Shown here: piece by piece, positions 4,114 through 12,705 of the stretch | How positions within the stretch are numbered: the first letter of the stretch is position 1 | How the letters are laid out: each line of letters begins with the position of its first letter | The notes under the pieces: generated by a model | Databases searched by the model: none | Told to the model about the DNA's origin: nothing | Seen by the model: only the letters and a program-made list of their open reading frames with translations | Made by a program: the position numbers and the translations under genes | IMG/VR virus record: IMGVR_UViG_2606217100_000003 | From: a virus | Lineage: Duplodnaviria; Heunggongvirae; Uroviricota; Caudoviricetes | Strand: one strand, 5' to 3' | Length of the DNA: 13,869 bases

Positions 4114-4278
4114 ATGATGAAATATGTGTACCCGGTAACCCCGGTGTGCATCGTTTTTGATTATTCCCACACACTCGCGCAGAAGGAGTTCCCCGTCGGG
4201 CTACGGTCTCTGTTAATACGGGAATACGGCGACGATACAGCGCATGATGTGTCAGGCTTGAATACCTTTATCCTTTAA
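4114..4278 (+). CDS. Hypothetical small protein (54 aa)
   Basis: Hand-translated ORF missing from the >=60-aa track: MMKYVYPVTPVCIVFDYSHTLAQKEFPVGLRSLLIREYGDDTAHDVSGLNTFIL, stop TAA at 4276-4278. It lies downstream of ybcV on the same strand; there is no homology evidence. Confidence 0.3.
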   Translation: MMKYVYPVTPVCIVFDYSHTLAQKEFPVGLRSLLIREYGDDTAHDVSGLNTFIL

Positions 4279-4324
4279 AAGGGATATCAGTTAAGTTATC
4301 CCGTGTAGGGTATAAGCCATTATC

Positions 4325-4353
4325 AAAGCCACTCTGTAGGAAGTGGCTTTTGT
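4325..4353 (+). terminator. Putative intrinsic terminator of the plus-strand ybcV operon
   Basis: Hairpin aaagccact / ctgtagga / agtggcttt (9-bp stem) followed by tgt; the U-tail is weak. Confidence 0.3.
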
Positions 4354-4559
4354 AATGGCAATAAAAAGCCCCGCGAATGCGAGGCTAAATCCTGGTATTT
4401 GTAATGACTGGCTCTTATCTCAACGCAGCCCCTTACCGCGCGCAAAATGCTCAATATCAAGCATCAGCAATGAGATGTTTAATCTGGATTCACTCCAGAA
4501 GTGAGCACCACCCTGTCTACAGAGCCAGATGTGAAGGATGATGAGTAAAATTATCGCTA

Positions 4560-5027
4560 TCATCGAAGGCATTGCGTCCTGATGTATTCCTGAAGCGTTC
4601 TCAGTGCTGTTTGGTCGCGGATAATTCCGTCCCGGATACCGAGAACGTTTCGTCCAGCAACTGGAGAGAGTTCGACGGTGGCATCATTGCCCATGCCGGA
4701 GGCGCTGGAGGTTTCGGCTGAGGATGGCACAGGGCATTTTCCTTTGACGAGCACCCGACCACCATTATCAAGCTTGCGCCGAAGAGCATCATTTTCAGCT
4801 TTCGCATCAGCTAACTCCTTCGTGTATTTATCATCGAGTGCATCAGCATCACGCTGGCGCTGCTGCATGTCAGTAATGGTGGCGTTCGCCTTCTCCAGTT
4901 CACTGGCCTTGTTATCGCGCTGTTCTTTGTAGGCGATTGCATTATCACGGTAATGATTAACAGCCCATGACAGGCAGACGATGATGCAGATAACCAGAGC
5001 GGAGATAATCGCGGTTACCCTGCTCAT
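4560..5027 (-). CDS. rzpD: Spanin inner-membrane subunit (Rz, i-spanin)
   Basis: The track ORF is 4560..5039; the likely start is ATG at 5027 ([30 protein letters not shown]..., as lambda Rz begins), overlapping the endolysin stop as ATGA. It has an N-terminal TM segment and a coiled-coil periplasmic domain. Confidence 0.85.
4601..4807 (-). CDS. rzoD: Spanin outer-membrane lipoprotein subunit (Rz1, o-spanin), embedded in the +1 frame of Rz
   Basis: 68-aa ORF fully inside Rz in another frame, with SD aaggag 7 nt upstream of ATG 4807. It has a lipoprotein signal ending in the lipobox-like VVGC and a proline-rich mature part ([11 protein letters not shown]), like lambda Rz1. Confidence 0.75.
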
Positions 5028-6309: not shown

Positions 6310-7392
6310 ATGAAAAAATTAACAGTGGCAATTTCTGCTGTAGCTGCATCAGTACTGATGGCGATGTCTGCTCAGGCAGCTGAAATTTATAATAAAGACA
6401 GTAACAAGCTGGATCTGTACGGGAAAGTTAATGCTAAGCACTACTTCTCCTCTAATGATGCAGATGATGGTGATACTACTTATGCCCGTCTTGGCTTCAA
6501 AGGTGAAACCCAAATCAACGATCAACTGACTGGTTTCGGTCAGTGGGAATATGAATTCAAAGGCAACCGCGCTGAATCTCAAGGTTCCTCCAAAGATAAA
6601 ACCCGTCTTGCCTTCGCTGGCCTGAAATTCGGTGACTACGGCTCCATCGATTATGGCCGTAACTACGGTGTAGCATACGATATTGGTGCATGGACCGACG
6701 TTCTGCCAGAATTCGGTGGCGATACCTGGACCCAAACAGATGTATTCATGACTGGTCGCACCACAGGTGTTGCAACTTATCGTAACAACGACTTCTTTGG
6801 TCTGGTTGATGGCCTGAACTTTGCAGCTCAGTATCAGGGCAAAAATGACCGAAAAGAAGTAACTGAAGCTAATGGCGATGGTTTCGGTTTCTCAACTACT
6901 TATGAGTATGAAGGATTCGGCGTGGGTGCAACCTATGCTAAATCTGATCGCACTAATAATCAGGTTATCTACGGTAACAACGGTCTGAATGCTTCTGGTC
7001 AAAATGCTGAAGTATGGGCAGCTGGTCTGAAATATGATGCGAACAACATCTATCTGGCCACCACCTATTCTGAAACCCAGAACATGACTGTTTTTGGTAA
7101 TAACCATATTGCCAACAAAGCACAAAACTTCGAAGCTGTTGCACAATATCAGTTCGACTTCGGCCTGCGTCCATCCGTTGCTTACCTGCATTCTAAAGGA
7201 AAAGACTTGGGTGTTTGGGGTGATCAGGACCTGGTTGAATATGTTGATGTAGGTGCAACCTATTACTTCAACAAAAATATGTCCACTTTTGTTGACTACA
7301 AAATCAACCTGATTGATAAGAGCGATTTCACGAAAGCATCTGGCGTTGCTACCGATGATATCGTTGCTGTAGGTATGGTTTACCAGTTCTAA
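6310..7392 (+). CDS. nmpC: Outer-membrane general porin, OmpC family (prophage NmpC/Lc-type), apparently intact
   Basis: 360-aa ORF with signal peptide [23 protein letters not shown], then [17 protein letters not shown]... and a C-terminal ...VGMVYQF ending in the terminal Phe typical of porins. It resembles OmpC throughout and is not interrupted by an insertion sequence. Confidence 0.9.
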
Positions 7393-8836: not shown

Positions 8837-8999
8837 GACTCCTCCTTGCTGCCAGTCGCAACCATTTTTTATCAACCAAGCTGGCGGTATATCCGAGCAG
8901 TGTTGGTATTTCGGATGGCTTCAGCTCAGGTTTACGCTTACGACGATTTGGTACTCTGTAGATGTGTCCGTTCATGACACGAATAAGCGGTGTAGCCAT
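8829..8999 (-). CDS. ninE: NinE-family small protein
   Basis: Hand-translated 56-aa ORF missing from the track: [56 protein letters not shown]. It has a strong SD (aggagg); its ATG overlaps the ybcN stop (TAATG) and its TGA overlaps the ybcO ATG. The position matches ninE in DLP12. Confidence 0.65.
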   Translation of the reverse strand: MATPLIRVMNGHIYRVPNRRKRKPELKPSEIPTLLGYTASLVDKKWLRLAARRSHG

Positions 9000-9454
9000 T
9001 ACGCCTCCTGCTTGTCGCGCAGCAGCTGAAACTCGCAGCTCTGTGGAATAGTCAGGTGGCAGCCAATATTCATCGCCCAGGCTTCAACCTTACACAGGAA
9101 GACATACATCTCTCCGGTATCAAGATCGGAGGTATGGCGTAACGACTGGATAGTAGTGATTTCGCCGGTTACGACATCAACCAGGTCCTTGGTTTCATAA
9201 CCGAGGTATGTGTGTTTGAGAGCATCTTTTACCCATGCTGCGGTAGCGAACGATTTCCCCCTGCTGATGAGGTATTCACTGATTTCGCTGTACCACATGT
9301 GGCTGAGTGCATTCTGGGAAAGACTGCGTTTCTCACGCCACGGTTTAAGCACCATGCGAAAGCATTTTCCGTCCTCCAGATAAGGCTGGATCTGCTGGCC
9401 GATAGCGGTGAAGTTACCGCGATGCAGTTTGATGCCATCTTGTGGTAGGTTCAC
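8999..9454 (-). CDS. ybcN: NinB/Orf-family recombination mediator (YbcN)
   Basis: 151-aa ORF with GTG start at 9454 and strong SD (ggaggtg). The RSLSQN motif resembles the lambda NinB RSLDQN region, and the sequence matches my memory of K-12 YbcN. Confidence 0.8.
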
Positions 9455-9651
9455 GCTTCACCTCCGCAGAGGTCAGGCGCTGGATGCAAAAAATCGCAGG
9501 TGCATTTCTGCATCTGTGAAGGGAGAAGAGAGTTTGAATTGTATGTGCGCATAAACGTCCCCGTTTAGCGCAGAAGTCACCGGAGTTGTTCAGGCTCCGA
9601 TGACATGATTATGGCGGGTTGATAGCTGGAAATCAAATTGCTTTCATGTCT

Positions 9652-9876
9652 TCAAATAACCTTCAATTTTTCGATTTGGCTTTCTCGATAGGCTATCTCT
9701 TTATGTATTTCATCCAGACGACCTTGATTGTATTCACCTTCAAGAGCGTCCTCGCATATAGCAGTTTCTTCTTCCAAAAGTTCTCTAATTTTTCGCTGAT
9801 GATGTGTCATTCCCTGCCTTGCCCCTTCTGGGGTAGATTCAAATTCTATCGTCACTTTCAACCCTCCTGTTTTCAA
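9652..9876 (-). CDS. Hypothetical small acidic coiled-coil protein (74 aa from TTG, or 52 aa from internal ATG)
   Basis: ORF with TTG start and no clear SD; an internal ATG (MTHHQRKIRELLEEE...) has a weak SD. The composition is protein-like (charged, helical), whereas the antisense ORF is Phe-rich low complexity. No homologue recognised. Confidence 0.3.
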   Translation of the reverse strand: MKTGGLKVTIEFESTPEGARQGMTHHQRKIRELLEEETAICEDALEGEYNQGRLDEIHKEIAYRESQIEKLKVI

Positions 9877-9884
9877 ATAAACCG

Positions 9885-9904
9885 GATCGCTACCGATCGC
9901 TACC
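9885..9904. repeat. Tandem direct repeat 2 x gatcgctacc (two Dam GATC sites)
   Basis: gatcgctacc gatcgctacc sits immediately upstream of the 9652-9876 ORF. A partial inverted copy of the unit (atcggtagc) occurs at 10037-10045. Confidence 0.6.
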
Positions 9905-10065
9905 TTTAGGTAAAGTTATCGACTTCTCGAAATAAAACTTCAGGCACTCATTGTACGCTTTACTAGATGCCACCAAGTCAATGTTTACCTTGTCGGCTTC
10001 GTACTAGATTTTAGCTGCTATGTTAAAGTCTGACATATCGGTAGCAAGTCAATAAGTTGCATAAT

Positions 10066-10092
10066 TTATAAAAAACCCGCCAAAGCGGGTTT
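10066..10092 (-). terminator. Intrinsic terminator of the 339-aa/NADAR operon
   Basis: On the minus strand: acccgc-tttg-gcgggt stem-loop followed by tttttt, 38 nt downstream of the NADAR stop. Confidence 0.6.
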
Positions 10093-10129
10093 GCAGATCT
10101 GTCACGACAGTGAAAGGAACAACGCCACA

Positions 10130-10747
10130 TTAAAAAAGCGATAAGCTTTGCCCCGAATTCATCGGTAGTGGAGAGAAAGTAACATCACGTATTTGCTCCC
10201 CGAGCAGAAGAAACCTATCCAAGGGTAGCGGCGGTATCGTAGCAAACCCTGAAAGCCCCTTCTTTCTTGCAACATCTCTCGCATCCATAAGGATACGACC
10301 TAACACGTTCATACCATAAAAGTTACCTTCGGAGTCTTTACTAGCCCCCCAAAATTGGTCCTTCTCTGAGTGCTCAACAATGTCATGCTCTCCTGTGCTA
10401 TCCAGGAGCGCGAAAAACGATTCCCAGTTCTGGCAAAGCTTAACGCAGACACACCATTTCATTACCGAAACTCGATTTTTTTCCCAACCTGCACGGGTTT
10501 TAGCTTCGAAAGATCTGGCGGTTTGTTTAGCTTCATAAGGGTTGCCTTGGGTAATAATAGCCTTTTGGATATCTGGATAGTCTGGATATCGGCATGCTTG
10601 GTAAAGAATTTCACTCGATTGAATGGGTATACCATTAACTAAGAGCGGATATCCTTTGGCCATGTTGGAAAGACCACCCCATTTCTCGGTGGTTTTCCTG
10701 AAAGAAACTGTGTTGTGAAACAGGTATAGTCTATAGCTCATGATCAC
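10130..10747 (-). CDS. NADAR-domain protein (YbiA-like, DUF1768; predicted ADP-ribosyl/N-glycoside hydrolase)
   Basis: About 203-205 aa (GTG at 10747 or ATG at 10741 with SD ggtga). Three segments match E. coli YbiA as I recall it. GGLSNMAKGYPLLVNGIPIQSSEILYQACRY matches GDFSNFAAWPIKVDGKTWPTSEHYFQAQKF. WEKNRVSVMKW matches WESVKEQVMRK. IVEHSEKDQFWGA...NVLGRILMDAR matches LVEHTENDAYWGD...NRLGYLLMELR. Confidence 0.75.
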   Translation of the reverse strand: MIMSYRLYLFHNTVSFRKTTEKWGGLSNMAKGYPLLVNGIPIQSSEILYQACRYPDYPDIQKAIITQGNPYEAKQTARSFEAKTRAGWEKNRVSVMKWCVCVKLCQNWESFFALLDSTGEHDIVEHSEKDQFWGASKDSEGNFYGMNVLGRILMDARDVARKKGLSGFATIPPLPLDRFLLLGEQIRDVTFSPLPMNSGQSLSLF

Positions 10748-11763
10748 CGATTATACACATTACGCTTCATAAGTGGATACCAACAATCCAGAGCTCTATT
10801 TCCCGTTCGAAGATAAGTTCCCCACCAGTACGCTAGAGGGGTATTATTGGGGCAGTTTCTGAAAGTAAAGATAGTTCCACCAAACCCAACACCATTGAAA
10901 GTTGAAAAGCCTAAAGGCTTTATAGCATCAGAAGGATTTTGACTCTGACCAAGGATATCAAACCCAACTTTTGTCATAATTGCTTCAAAACGATCTCGTC
11001 TCTGCTCATTAGGGAAAAAATTATTCGCGACGTAACCGTCACGATATGTTCCTAAATAATGTACTTGACCGTCAGCCCATTCAGGTATTGATACACTTTG
11101 CGCTTTTGGCCAAAAAACCTCAGAACTCGAACTGTTTCGGCGTTGATTTTCAACAACTGCAAACTCACCACCATCAACGCAAACTGAAATATTCCTATCA
11201 GCAAATTTTCGTTCAAGTTGTTTTTTTATATTCCATGCTGAATACGTGTGCCCGCCTAAAAAGTACACCAATATTGTAATATTTTGGAGTTCAAAGTGCT
11301 CAATAAACCAAGTTAAATCATTGATTGCCTTAGCTCCTGAGAATGAAACATCGTCAAGGTAAATAAATTCACGGAATGAACTAACTCTTTGACGTTGTGA
11401 CAGTCTGGTCACAACGTTGAATTCTTCTACACAATCTTCGCGAAGCAAATCCAAAAACTCAGATTGACTGGTGCCTTGGTTCTGGATATCGAGAAACGCT
11501 GCGGTTTGAAAGAACCTTTCATTTTGCTCATCATTGGCGATACTACTAATAACTCTGCGATAGTCGCTCTCAGAGAAGTATCCAATCCCCATTAATCGGT
11601 CCGTTTCCTCTAAGACAAATCGCCTATCGGTTAACTCAAATTGATTAATCCATCGATTAACATGATCAATGCTCATGCCACCTTGAGGAGGGTTTCGATA
11701 GTCATTTAATTTAGTAGCAATTTGCCCCATAAGATCACGATCTGTAACATTGCTATAACACAT
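10744..11763 (-). CDS. Uncharacterised 339-aa protein with weak phosphoribosyltransferase-like motif; first gene of the NADAR operon
   Basis: ATG at 11763 with SD agga; its stop TGA (10746-10744) overlaps or abuts the NADAR start. The central FIYLDDVSFSGAKA loosely fits the type-I PRTase PRPP-binding signature (hydrophobic x4, DD, small residues, G). No other family was recognised. The gene is low in GC. Confidence 0.7.
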   Translation of the reverse strand: MCYSNVTDRDLMGQIATKLNDYRNPPQGGMSIDHVNRWINQFELTDRRFVLEETDRLMGIGYFSESDYRRVISSIANDEQNERFFQTAAFLDIQNQGTSQSEFLDLLREDCVEEFNVVTRLSQRQRVSSFREFIYLDDVSFSGAKAINDLTWFIEHFELQNITILVYFLGGHTYSAWNIKKQLERKFADRNISVCVDGGEFAVVENQRRNSSSSEVFWPKAQSVSIPEWADGQVHYLGTYRDGYVANNFFPNEQRRDRFEAIMTKVGFDILGQSQNPSDAIKPLGFSTFNGVGFGGTIFTFRNCPNNTPLAYWWGTYLRTGNRALDCWYPLMKRNVYNR

Positions 11764-11966
11764 ATAGATTCCTGTTCATGCATTGATACGAAAGGGTCAG
11801 AATACTCTTAAAAAAATTTGGTGAAAGCCTGAAAAGTCATAATGTTAACATGTATCACAAATTGTTATTTTTCTCAGTATCTGAGACGTAAACTGAATCC
11901 AAGACCACTAATCTGGCTCAAAAAATTTAGAAAGTTTCTCATAATGAATACTTGCCTCTTTGCCCG

Positions 11967-12602
11967 TCATACACTTGCTCCTTTCAGCCCAAACTTAGCT
12001 TTGATTTCTGCGATCTTCGCCAGAGCCTGTGCACGATTTAGAGGTCTACCGCCCATAACAGGAAGTTGTTTTACTGGTTCAGGTATCGTCTCACCACGGT
12101 TAATTCGCGCTGTCATACAGGTCAGTTCATCGGCAGCCTTGCGCCGTAATTCCGCATCAGTAAGCGCATTGGCCCGCATGTTCTGGTACAGGTTGGTAAC
12201 CAGCCAGTAGTGCGCGTTTGATTTCCATGGATAAGACTCTGCGTCCGGATACAGGCCACGCTTCCGGCAATACTCGTAAACCATATCAACCAGCTCGCTG
12301 GCGTTTGGCAGCCCGGCGGTAACGGATGCTTCTTCCCGGCACCAGGCAACAAACTGCCCGGGTGATGGCAGGAATGGTCGATTCTGCCGACGGGCTACGC
12401 GCATTCCTGCGTTAACCTGTTCCATTGTGGTGATCCCGTTTTCCCGGAAAGCCAGAACCCACTGGCGGCGGATTTCGTTCAGTTCGTTCTGATCCCGGTT
12501 AGCCAGGCTCGCAGGGAAAGTTGCCAGTAACTGGCTGAACACACCGTTGATGATCTGCGCTACCTGCTGTACAGGCAACACGTAAAGATCCAACCAAGCC
12601 AA
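11967..12602 (-). CDS. Replication protein P homologue with replaced N-terminus (P')
   Basis: 211-aa ORF; from VQQVAQIINGVFSQLLATFPASLANRDQNE... to the C-terminal ...AKFGLKGASV it matches lambda P as I recall it. The first ~11 residues (MAWLDLYVLPV) are unrelated. TTG start at 12602 is preceded by SD aaggag. Confidence 0.8.
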   Translation of the reverse strand: MAWLDLYVLPVQQVAQIINGVFSQLLATFPASLANRDQNELNEIRRQWVLAFRENGITTMEQVNAGMRVARRQNRPFLPSPGQFVAWCREEASVTAGLPNASELVDMVYEYCRKRGLYPDAESYPWKSNAHYWLVTNLYQNMRANALTDAELRRKAADELTCMTARINRGETIPEPVKQLPVMGGRPLNRAQALAKIAEIKAKFGLKGASV

Positions 12603-12705
12603 AATCTCCTTACCTCACAACACGGCAAGCCTGCATTGCGGCGCTTCAGTCTCCGCTGCATACTGTCCAGGTGAGCGCGGGTGATGGCATAACAGAGGAA
12701 AGAAA

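Follow-up and report, generated by a model that had tools for sequence, protein, structure and literature searches.

What occupies the space between the replication gene P and the ninB-type gene ybcN in a lambdoid prophage, and is this space a site of cargo exchange? The question is raised by IMG/VR record IMGVR_UViG_2606217100_000003, a 13,869-nucleotide stretch of caudoviricete DNA (hereafter the window), in which a low-GC block containing a phosphoribosyltransferase (PRTase)-like gene and a NADAR-family gene lies at this position. The window matches Escherichia coli strain SW071614 at 100% identity and represents what is left of a DLP12-type lambdoid prophage at the tRNA gene argU. The evidence points to a two-part answer. 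The gene pair is predicted to encode DS-32, a two-gene anti-phage system, in a diverged allelic form, and the interval that holds it is an accessory (moron or defense) slot of DLP12-type lambdoid prophages, extending from P, with or without ren, to the first nin-region genes (ylcH-ybcN/ninB). The identification of the cargo and the slot hotspot model, taken jointly, are held with high confidence.

The exact gap from the start of ybcN to the stop codon of the truncated P gene (P') is 9455-11966, or 2,512 bp. The original prediction had described an interval of about 2.5 kb with a PRTase-like/NADAR operon, and both genes were identified in it. In a blastn comparison with DLP12 of E. coli K-12 MG1655 (locus L003; compared loci carry L numbers), homology runs to window position 9637 and restarts at 11942, leaving 9638-11941 (2,304 bp) as window-specific DNA; K-12 holds 5,570 bp between the same two boundaries. 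The K-12 gene order there is peaD(P')-renD::IS3-emrE-ylcJ-ybcK-ybcL-ybcM-ylcH-ybcN. The emrE, ybcK, ybcL and ybcM cargo that the original prediction assigned to K-12 was named correctly, and the alignment shows cargo different from that of the window. The further claim that the operon and a small open reading frame (ORF) replace ren/nin-type genes stood in part: the cargo does differ, but a 10-codon ren stub is kept and 9455-9637 (183 bp, comprising the ylcH-like ORF with the 85 bp ahead of it) is shared with K-12 as part of the flank, not of the cargo. The small ORF is present, with 67 codons, but as an independent sub-module outside the operon. On the other side, the P flank (11942-12572) is 94-100% identical to P of other prophages, and PGAP annotates P' as 'replication protein P, incomplete, missing N-terminus'.

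Base composition separates the cargo from its flanks. GC content is 41.2% over 9455-11966 and 40.5% over the variable part, compared with 54.1% in P', 50.9% in ybcN and 52.6% in rusA. Within the cargo it is 39.6% for the PRTase-like gene, 44.4% for the NADAR gene and 40.2% for the 67-aa ORF, falling to 33.5% in the 203 bp that separate the PRTase start from the P stop (11764-11966). Equally AT-rich sub-windows of the same size make up only 2.4% of the window, all at the appY end. Codon usage was judged by GC at third codon positions (GC3) and rare-codon fractions, in place of the Sharp-Li codon adaptation index. GC3 is 0.32, 0.43 and 0.29 for the PRTase-like, NADAR and 67-aa genes, versus 0.55 for P', 0.61 for ybcN and 0.57 for rusA; rare codons account for 9-14% of the cargo versus 2.5-2.7% of ybcN and rusA, with P' at 7.5%. 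The low-GC island proposed for the P-to-ninB interval was therefore confirmed (40.5% against 51-54% in ybcN and P'), and GC, GC3 and rare codons all differ from those of the flanking genes. The proposed value of about 58% for rusA was too high; a 57% peak falls in P'.

The two main cargo genes are adjacent on the minus strand, 2 nt apart, with the PRTase-like gene first, and their products (DS-32A and DS-32B) pass the NCBI curated equivalog models for DS-32: NF053875 (DS32_1_antiphage) at 310.9 bits (cut-off 250, model positions 2-322 of 322) and NF053876 (DS32_2_antiphage) at 259.8 bits (cut-off 240, positions 1-181 of 181). Pfam assigns PRTase-CE to the first and NADAR (82.4 bits) to the second, and newer PGAP records give the identical proteins WP_021548563.1 and WP_000122138.1 'anti-phage' names. 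The order PRTase-like then NADAR recurs in strains TW11681 and A35, in Klebsiella and in Morganella. Every sequence criterion of DS-32 membership that was tested, both models and gene order, agrees with the assignment. PADLOC 2023 gave only weak matches for both proteins because that library is older than DS-32; for DS-32A the match was to PRTase_III-A (E 5e-10). A riboflavin-pathway N-glycosidase identity was rejected for the NADAR gene, which scored 71.0 against TIGR02464, slightly below the cut-off of 73.7, while passing that for DS-32B.

DS-32A has a type I PRTase fold with large N- and C-terminal additions, and no sequence match to any solved PRTase was found. A search of 5.8 billion proteins returned 52 relatives at E <= 1e-5, all with PF24390 and ranging from 99% down to 25% identity; those with a named source are from Enterobacterales. 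In an alignment of 35 sequences, D138 is invariant, and conservation reaches 90% or more at D137, F141 and G143. These residues lie in FIYLDDVSFSG, which we take to be the phosphoribosyl pyrophosphate (PRPP)-loop pattern of type I PRTases. Most invariant residues fall in the C-terminal segment, including R302-N303-C304-P305-N306-N307. Because the PRPP-binding acidic pair and this strictly conserved C-terminal motif are kept, DS-32A is probably an active enzyme. The best solved relative of DS-32B is E. coli YbiA (2b3w, E 3e-12), with VEHSEKDQFWG of DS-32B aligned to VEHTENDAYWG of YbiA. To our knowledge, the BC4488 subfamily, with its catalytic Asp in the last strand, is the only NADAR subfamily tied to DarT.

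DS-32 originates from the DefensePredictor study of DeWeirdt et al. (bioRxiv 10.1101/2025.01.08.631726; Science 2026, PMC13092281). It is validated there under the name 'NADR' (WP_000097610.1 and WP_032260665.1, sequences in Tables S6 and S8 of PMC13092281), its PRTase being labeled 'Retron_III~PRTase' (PMC13092281). The preprint describes DS-32 as a PRTase with a NADAR protein that is structurally like DarG; the PRTase is unrelated to DarT in structure and sequence, and the authors expect a distinct mechanism and suggest 'TA partner swapping' (TA, toxin-antitoxin; 10.1101/2025.01.08.631726). Table S7 of PMC13092281 lists -log efficiency of plating (EOP) values of 3.70 for Bas26, 1.60 for RB69, 0.88 for SECphi18, 0.62 for T5 and 0 for Bas67, and the same table records smaller plaques for all five phages.

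Aligned without gaps to this validated pair, the window proteins show identities of 52% for A and 85% for B. The divergence of A is uneven: identity is 45-48% over residues 1-205 and 70% over the last 87 residues (253-339). At the DNA level the two alleles are homologous (77.8%) only in the NADAR gene and at the A gene 3' end. In TW11681, WP_000097610.1 sits in the same slot, from P to ylcH-ybcN, and so does the 94.6% allele of A35. A second, strongly diverged DS-32 allele class is recognized here; the system itself had been published, and these very proteins named, beforehand.

Across a set of 5,426 complete E. coli genomes, DS-32-like DNA occurs in 63, with operon coverage of at least 80% in 43. 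Identity is at least 99% in 41 genomes, 90-95% in three and about 78% in 19. Among the matches listed, those of the 90-95% class (A35, A3024) are full-length at 94.6%, and those of the 78% class cover only the NADAR gene and the A gene 3' end, as in TW11681. Further afield, a Klebsiella PRTase-CE and NADAR pair (36% identical) lies in an integrase/Pox_D5 primase island. An 87% identical cassette of Morganella morganii (L015/L016 3705-7634) lies in a prophage directly beside KwaA/KwaB (Kiwa), the DS-32 and Kiwa stretch being flanked by integrase and tail-fiber genes; the two-gene cassette therefore moves among hotspots of different prophage types. Damaged copies also occur. The PRTase-like gene is split by the IS5-family element ISKpn26 in NZ_CP122823.1 (3850784-3853617) and NZ_CP122801.1 (H44 and H45, enterotoxigenic E. 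coli (ETEC)), and reduced to its 5' 458 nt in NZ_OW968011.1, which may be signs of a costly A subunit.

The comparison of slots extends the picture beyond DS-32. The ybcN/ylcH flank occurs 3,649 times, spread over 3,024 of the 5,426 complete genomes, and homology to the window at those flanks ends at few discrete points. Twelve annotated E. coli prophages (K-12 and 11 others, at argU, icd, ybhC and other sites) have differing content from P/ren to ylcH-ybcN (Table 1). An IMG/VR sample comprised 80 loci with a YbcN at least 97% identical, 62 of them with P upstream. With cargo classes defined at 90% mutual coverage and 90% identity, these 62 intervals measure 1,219-5,690 bp and form 25 classes, each of 34-47% GC. 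Low GC is therefore a property of the slot's cargo generally, not of the DS-32 insert alone. The swappable accessory hotspot that the original prediction had suspected is borne out by the 12 prophages and the 25 classes alike.

Family scans of the larger ORFs identified known defense genes. They include DS-9 (532 bits, cut-off 420) with a HAD hydrolase; Kiwa, with KwaA above its cut-off and KwaB below the NCBIfam cut-off but with a Pfam match; PD-Lambda-1 (655 and 636 bits), which one locus combines with an HD-domain protein; a NACHT protein of 643 aa; and the A35-type DS-32, with two DS-32 alleles among the 62 contigs. Weak matches to HEC-07 and PDC-M28A were also obtained, together with Bro-N/P22AR antirepressor-like proteins, an outer-membrane beta-barrel protein and a DUF4145 protein. 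The validated systems in the slot are DS-32 (three alleles), DS-9, Kiwa and PD-Lambda-1.

Other slot ORFs lack a Pfam or NCBIfam match: a 186- and 150-aa pair (L022 1814-2820), a 224-aa ORF (L017 7138-7812) and ORFs of 238 and 225 aa (L065 5307-6023 and 7809-8486). A 471-aa protein (L037 7037-8452) has only the weak HEC-07 match, and a PADLOC scan of the L022 and L017 ORFs returned nothing. Because of their slot neighbors, these ORFs are candidate uncharacterized defense genes. The same prophage type has a second variable slot just past the cI-like repressor, at the position of lambda rexAB (Table 1), where the cargo varies among a SIR2 protein, a HipA-kinase and DUF3037 pair, a DUF6932 pair and a hypothetical protein.

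How the DS-32 pair would act can be proposed from its domains. DS-32A would be an effector that responds to infection by phosphoribosylating a base or nucleotide, or by attacking it in some other way, and thereby halts phage growth; in uninfected cells DS-32B, as a YbiA-type NADAR N-glycosidase, would undo this activity or hold it in check. Infected cells would then arrest their growth or undergo abortive infection. Such an outcome would fit the smaller plaques in Table S7 of PMC13092281. Enzymes of the NADAR/YbiA type remove N-glycosidic ribosyl adducts from bases by hydrolysis and are antitoxins to base-modifying toxins such as DarT1 and YarT (PMC11543638; PMC11125620). A toxin-antitoxin-like arrangement of PRTase effector and restraining NADAR protein is proposed, with some reserve, as the most economical model, the odds being somewhat against it. 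Alternatively, the two enzymes might deplete nucleotides in sequence, or the system might produce a signal. The strong divergence of A relative to B could mark A as the phage-sensing, specificity-determining part.

A different role for the pair would be that of an addiction module that mainly stabilizes the prophage, with phage defense as a side effect. This would be in keeping with the antitoxin role of NADAR toward DarT1 and YarT (PMC11125620), the 'TA partner swapping' suggested by the DS-32 authors themselves, the retention of the cassette in a heavily deleted prophage remnant, and the two ETEC genomes in which an IS5-family insertion interrupts the PRTase gene, as expected for a costly toxin. 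However, the homologous system cloned in MG1655 lowers Bas26 plating about 5,000-fold according to Table S7 of PMC13092281, and several bona fide defense systems occupy the same slot. Addiction as the principal role is thus unlikely, and the two roles can coexist.

The genes might instead serve the phage, the NADAR protein as a counter-defense against host DarT-type ADP-ribose or the pair in nucleotide salvage with the early-right operon. The operon is co-oriented with P and the nin genes, NADARs of phages such as T4 (gp30.3) have been proposed to act against host ADP-ribosyltransferases (PMC11125620), the PRTase fold is that of salvage enzymes, and the TIGR02464 score falls just short. Yet both proteins pass the DS-32 equivalog models instead, the pair travels jointly into non-lambdoid islands and beside Kiwa, the operon has a predicted terminator hairpin of its own, and DS-32A combines large terminal additions with the lack of a sequence match to solved PRTases. 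Table S7 of PMC13092281, moreover, lists defense of a phage-free host by the homologue. A phage-serving role is very unlikely.

The junctions bear on how cargo is exchanged. On the left, the cargo junction of the window is 11941/11942, inside ren. Window homology ends at 11941-11943 (ren codon 10) in 18 of 24 differing cargo classes, and at 9939, 11957, 11967, 11978, 12032 and 12213 in the other six. On the right, the ends fall at 9572, 9595, 9599, 9623, 9636-9637, 9639 and 9642, with TW11681 at 9659. Break points are thus concentrated at 11941-11978 and 9572-9659, the latter lying largely in a 70-bp zone of the ylcH linker. The original prediction had suggested that recombination scars or direct repeats might mark the insert flanks; the direct and inverted repeats found were short matches at chance level, none of them at the junctions. 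The ORFs of 9638-11941 include no transposase and no integrase.

The right boundary coincides with a conserved linker at ylcH. A promoter-like site, TTGATT-17-CATAAT, lies in it together with a 10-bp hairpin; the 33-aa ylcH-like ORF (9451-9552) begins there, and another hairpin resembles a terminator. The linker folds far better than shuffled sequence (z = -4.29). Extra linker copies were found within composite cargoes at six loci (Table 1). All internal copies part from the terminal copy right after the T run, and the four that were aligned (L083, L027, L059 and L065) share a continuation of their own (TCGGTGTTT...). The linker might function as a tR2-like terminator/promoter unit belonging to the nin region, as a site for recombination, or in both capacities.

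These patterns fit homologous or relaxed-homologous exchange, because the flanks are about 95% identical, the junctions are clustered and non-identical, gene stubs are present and mobility genes are absent; the ren stub, the theta-gene relic described below and the duplicated linkers were all counted for this model. Cargo would be swapped between lambdoid phages and prophages by Red/RecET/RecA-type recombination through the flanks, with the ~150-bp ylcH linker as a recurrent crossover point at which modules stack in tandem. Recombination of this kind between lambdoid genomes is described by De Paepe et al. (PMC3945230). That the cargo came in as a separate mobile element, through transposition or site-specific insertion, is extremely improbable: insertion sequences do enter the slot (IS3 in K-12 ren, IS5 in S1-ISR-02-A) and ybcK, a serine-recombinase-family gene, is frequent cargo, but no transposase, integrase, inverted repeat or target-site duplication was found at 9637/9638 or 11941/11942, the left junction lies within ren, junction positions vary with cargo class, and the sub-modules (67-aa ORF, theta) change independently of DS-32.

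Several observations weigh against the reading of the window as a working DS-32 allele in an exchangeable defense slot. DS-32A is only 52% identical to the tested protein, and both model scores are moderately above their cut-offs (311/250 and 260/240). The only statement on mechanism by the DS-32 authors is that the system probably differs from DarTG (10.1101/2025.01.08.631726). A consensus scan upstream of the operon on the minus strand found no sigma-70-like site (three sites in the region, versus 6.0 by chance); cI, cro and pR have also been lost in an 8.1-kb deletion, so the cargo may not be expressed. The cargo DNA occurs in no sequenced phage of the phage genome collection, the match being a 56-bp theta relic only, and the exchange model is built on junction patterns only. 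Finally, the slot also carries clearly non-defense cargo (emrE, an inverse autotransporter, the outer-membrane beta-barrel protein and Bro-N/P22AR antirepressor-like genes) and is therefore a general moron slot enriched in defense, not a pure defense island.

That the P/ren-to-ylcH-ybcN interval is a major and formally undescribed defense hotspot, whose modules are delimited and stacked by the ~150-bp structured linker, is a broader and tentative proposal that we regard as rather less probable than not. If it is true, the cargo without family matches (L022, L017, L065 and L037) would represent candidate new defense systems. A search of one literature library found no paper describing this lambdoid slot as a defense hotspot, and a prior description is possible. 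Lambdoid-borne systems receive only passing mention in Vassallo et al. (PMC9519451).

The smaller features of the insert record its composite structure. The ren stub translates as MTGKEASIHYEKLSKFFEPD before its stop codon, compared with MTGKEAIIHYLGTH... for K-12 RenD; MTGKEASIHY corresponds to K-12 MTGKEAIIHY, and the two diverge beyond codon 10. The adjoining AT-rich region is conserved with the A35 allele, and AGGA lies 7 nt ahead of the DS-32A ATG. The terminator-like hairpin, 38 nt past the NADAR stop, has an 8-bp stem in both minimum-free-energy and centroid folds; the consensus scan missed it because the stem takes up part of the T run. The theta relic is represented in A35 by a longer fragment at the same place, with A35 homology to the window starting at 9939.

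The 67-aa ORF is an independent sub-module (9638-9938), separate from the DS-32 operon. It belongs to phrog_19187, a family of unknown function, and PGAP labels WP_000151203.1 as hypothetical. The ORF is absent from the A35 and TW11681 DS-32 loci: A35 has DS-32 followed by the longer theta fragment, and TW11681 has nothing between DS-32 and ylcH. DG343-1 has a 204-nt ORF of the same length here and no DS-32, DNA homology to the window ending just before the ORF. Just upstream of the 67-aa ORF, beside the theta relic, a 10-mer is perfectly duplicated in tandem (GATCGCTACC twice, 9885-9904), which may be a small recombination or slippage scar. An Rfam scan of the whole window found no family at gathering scores.

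The prophage itself reads, in window order, appY, terminase and nohD fragments, lysis genes, an intact ompC-like porin gene, quuD, ylcG, rusA, ybcO, ninE, ybcN, the 33-aa ylcH-like ORF, the 67-aa ORF, the NADAR and PRTase-like genes, truncated P and intD. Most of these genes, including the entire quuD-to-P' block, are on the minus strand. The prophage corresponds to the MEI1O2-23-type argU prophage minus 8,117 bp (L097 969-9085), a deletion that removed the P N-terminus, O, ydaT, cro, cI, kil, gam, bet, exo and more. Its junction (12570-12610) fuses P' to xis-proximal DNA through a 3-bp microhomology, TAC, at 12570-12572, and is spanned by one of the 5,426 complete genomes, SW071614. The ompC-like porin gene at the nmpC position (6310-7392) is intact, K-12 nmpC being split by IS5, and the 300 bp upstream of it have only about 27% GC. 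Two further segments are without homology to K-12 DLP12: 1528-2151, within the terminase/tail-fiber remnant, and 4245-4779, where a 50-aa hypothetical ORF takes the place of the borD region beside a ybcV-like DUF1398 gene only 83% identical to its K-12 counterpart.

Table 1. Features of the window around the cargo slot, and slot contents and linker copies at other loci (window coordinates unless an L number is given)
Feature	Position	Strand	Evidence or content
ybcN (NinB/Orf family), conserved right flank	8999..9454	-	NCBIfam PRK09741, 278 bits; phrog_72 NinB/Orf, 178.7 bits
Conserved ylcH linker, right slot boundary	9484..9637	-	94.7% identical to K-12 up to 9637
67-aa coiled-coil ORF, GTG start, AGGAGG ribosome-binding site	9652..9855	-	phrog_19187, 164 bits; WP_000151203.1
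56-bp relic of holE-like (DNA polymerase III theta) phage gene	9895..9950	-	87.5% match to phage HK639 theta gene
Intrinsic-terminator-like hairpin AAACCCGC-UUUG-GCGGGUUU, then UUUAU	10067..10092	-	Read from sequence
DS-32B, NADAR family anti-phage protein, 203 aa, YbiA-type	10130..10741	-	NF053876 and Pfam NADAR
DS-32A, PRTase-like anti-phage protein, 339 aa, PRTase-CE family	10744..11763	-	
AT-rich region upstream of operon, own promoter presumed here	11764..11941	-	
ren stub, ATG overlapping P stop, 10 ren codons at nt 11942-11970, then unrelated sequence to stop	11908..11970	-	
P' (truncated replication gene P), left flank	11967..12572	-	Pfam Phage_lambda_P, 208.6 bits
TW11681 slot			MT-A70 pseudogene and validated DS-32
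A35 slot			DS-32 (94.6% allele) and theta fragment
Strain 48 slot			TagO-like protein and two hypothetical proteins
S1-ISR-02-A slot			IS5, DUF4041 protein and P22AR-C protein
DG343-1 slot			Two small ORFs
FDAARGOS_497 slot			emrE-ylcJ-ybcK-P22AR
Ecol_244 slot			3.5-kb inverse autotransporter and alpha/beta hydrolase
A14 slot (beside ybhC)			Two hypothetical proteins
2014C-3057 slot			HEPN pair and P22AR
O157:H7 BB24-1 slot (beside icd)			emrE-ybcK
Internal linker copies	L083 6521-6649; L027 6898-7037; L059 6648-6783; L065 6356-6508; L007 2127-2215; L012 2537-2665		
Second variable slot	L005 14265-15866 (A35); L006 775-2348 (strain 48); L008 4864-6266 (DG343-1); L097 3783-4796		

The biology is of an expected kind and overturns nothing, since prophage defense hotspots and lambdoid mosaicism are already established. 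New here are the view at slot level, the map of junctions and the sub-module anatomy of a natural diverged DS-32 allele, with both DS-32 alleles sharing one lambdoid slot with DS-9, Kiwa, PD-Lambda-1 and NACHT proteins. The allele pair (A 52%, B 85%) is ready material for mapping the phage-specificity determinant, and E. coli prophages in their thousands can be mined for uncharacterized cargo by anchoring on the conserved flanks (the 3' end of P plus the ren start on one side, ylcH-ybcN on the other).

Among known systems, the closest is validated DS-32, which has the same order of PRTase-like and NADAR genes, nearly the same protein sizes (339/203 aa here, 343/203 aa there), agreement with the NCBI DS-32 models and the same P to ylcH-ybcN position; the left neighbor differs, being a ren stub here and an MT-A70 pseudogene in TW11681. 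The pairing of a NADAR/YbiA-fold hydrolase with a nucleotide- or base-modifying enzyme also recalls DarT1-NADAR (DarTG-type) and YarT-YbiA modules, and DarTG is known to defend against phage. The partner in the window has a type I PRTase fold, however, not an ADP-ribosyltransferase fold, and membership in DarTG was rejected since no ADP-ribosyltransferase (DarT) lies beside the hydrolase. DS-32A likewise resembles the PRTase effectors of type III-A retrons through its weak match to PADLOC PRTase_III-A, but its partner is a NADAR protein. A type III-A retron was rejected, with no reverse transcriptase gene in the PGAP annotation or the scanned cargo proteins and no Rfam family in the window. 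At the level of the locus, the slot resembles the hotspots of P2-like phages and P4-like satellites (Rousset 2022, PMC9122126; Vassallo 2022, PMC9519451) and classical lambdoid morons in its conserved flanks and variable AT-rich cargo, and the P2/P4 hotspots in the many validated defense systems at one position. It differs from the P2/P4 hotspots in being lambdoid and located from P/ren to ninB, in carrying non-defense morons too, and in the repeated ~150-bp linker at its module borders.

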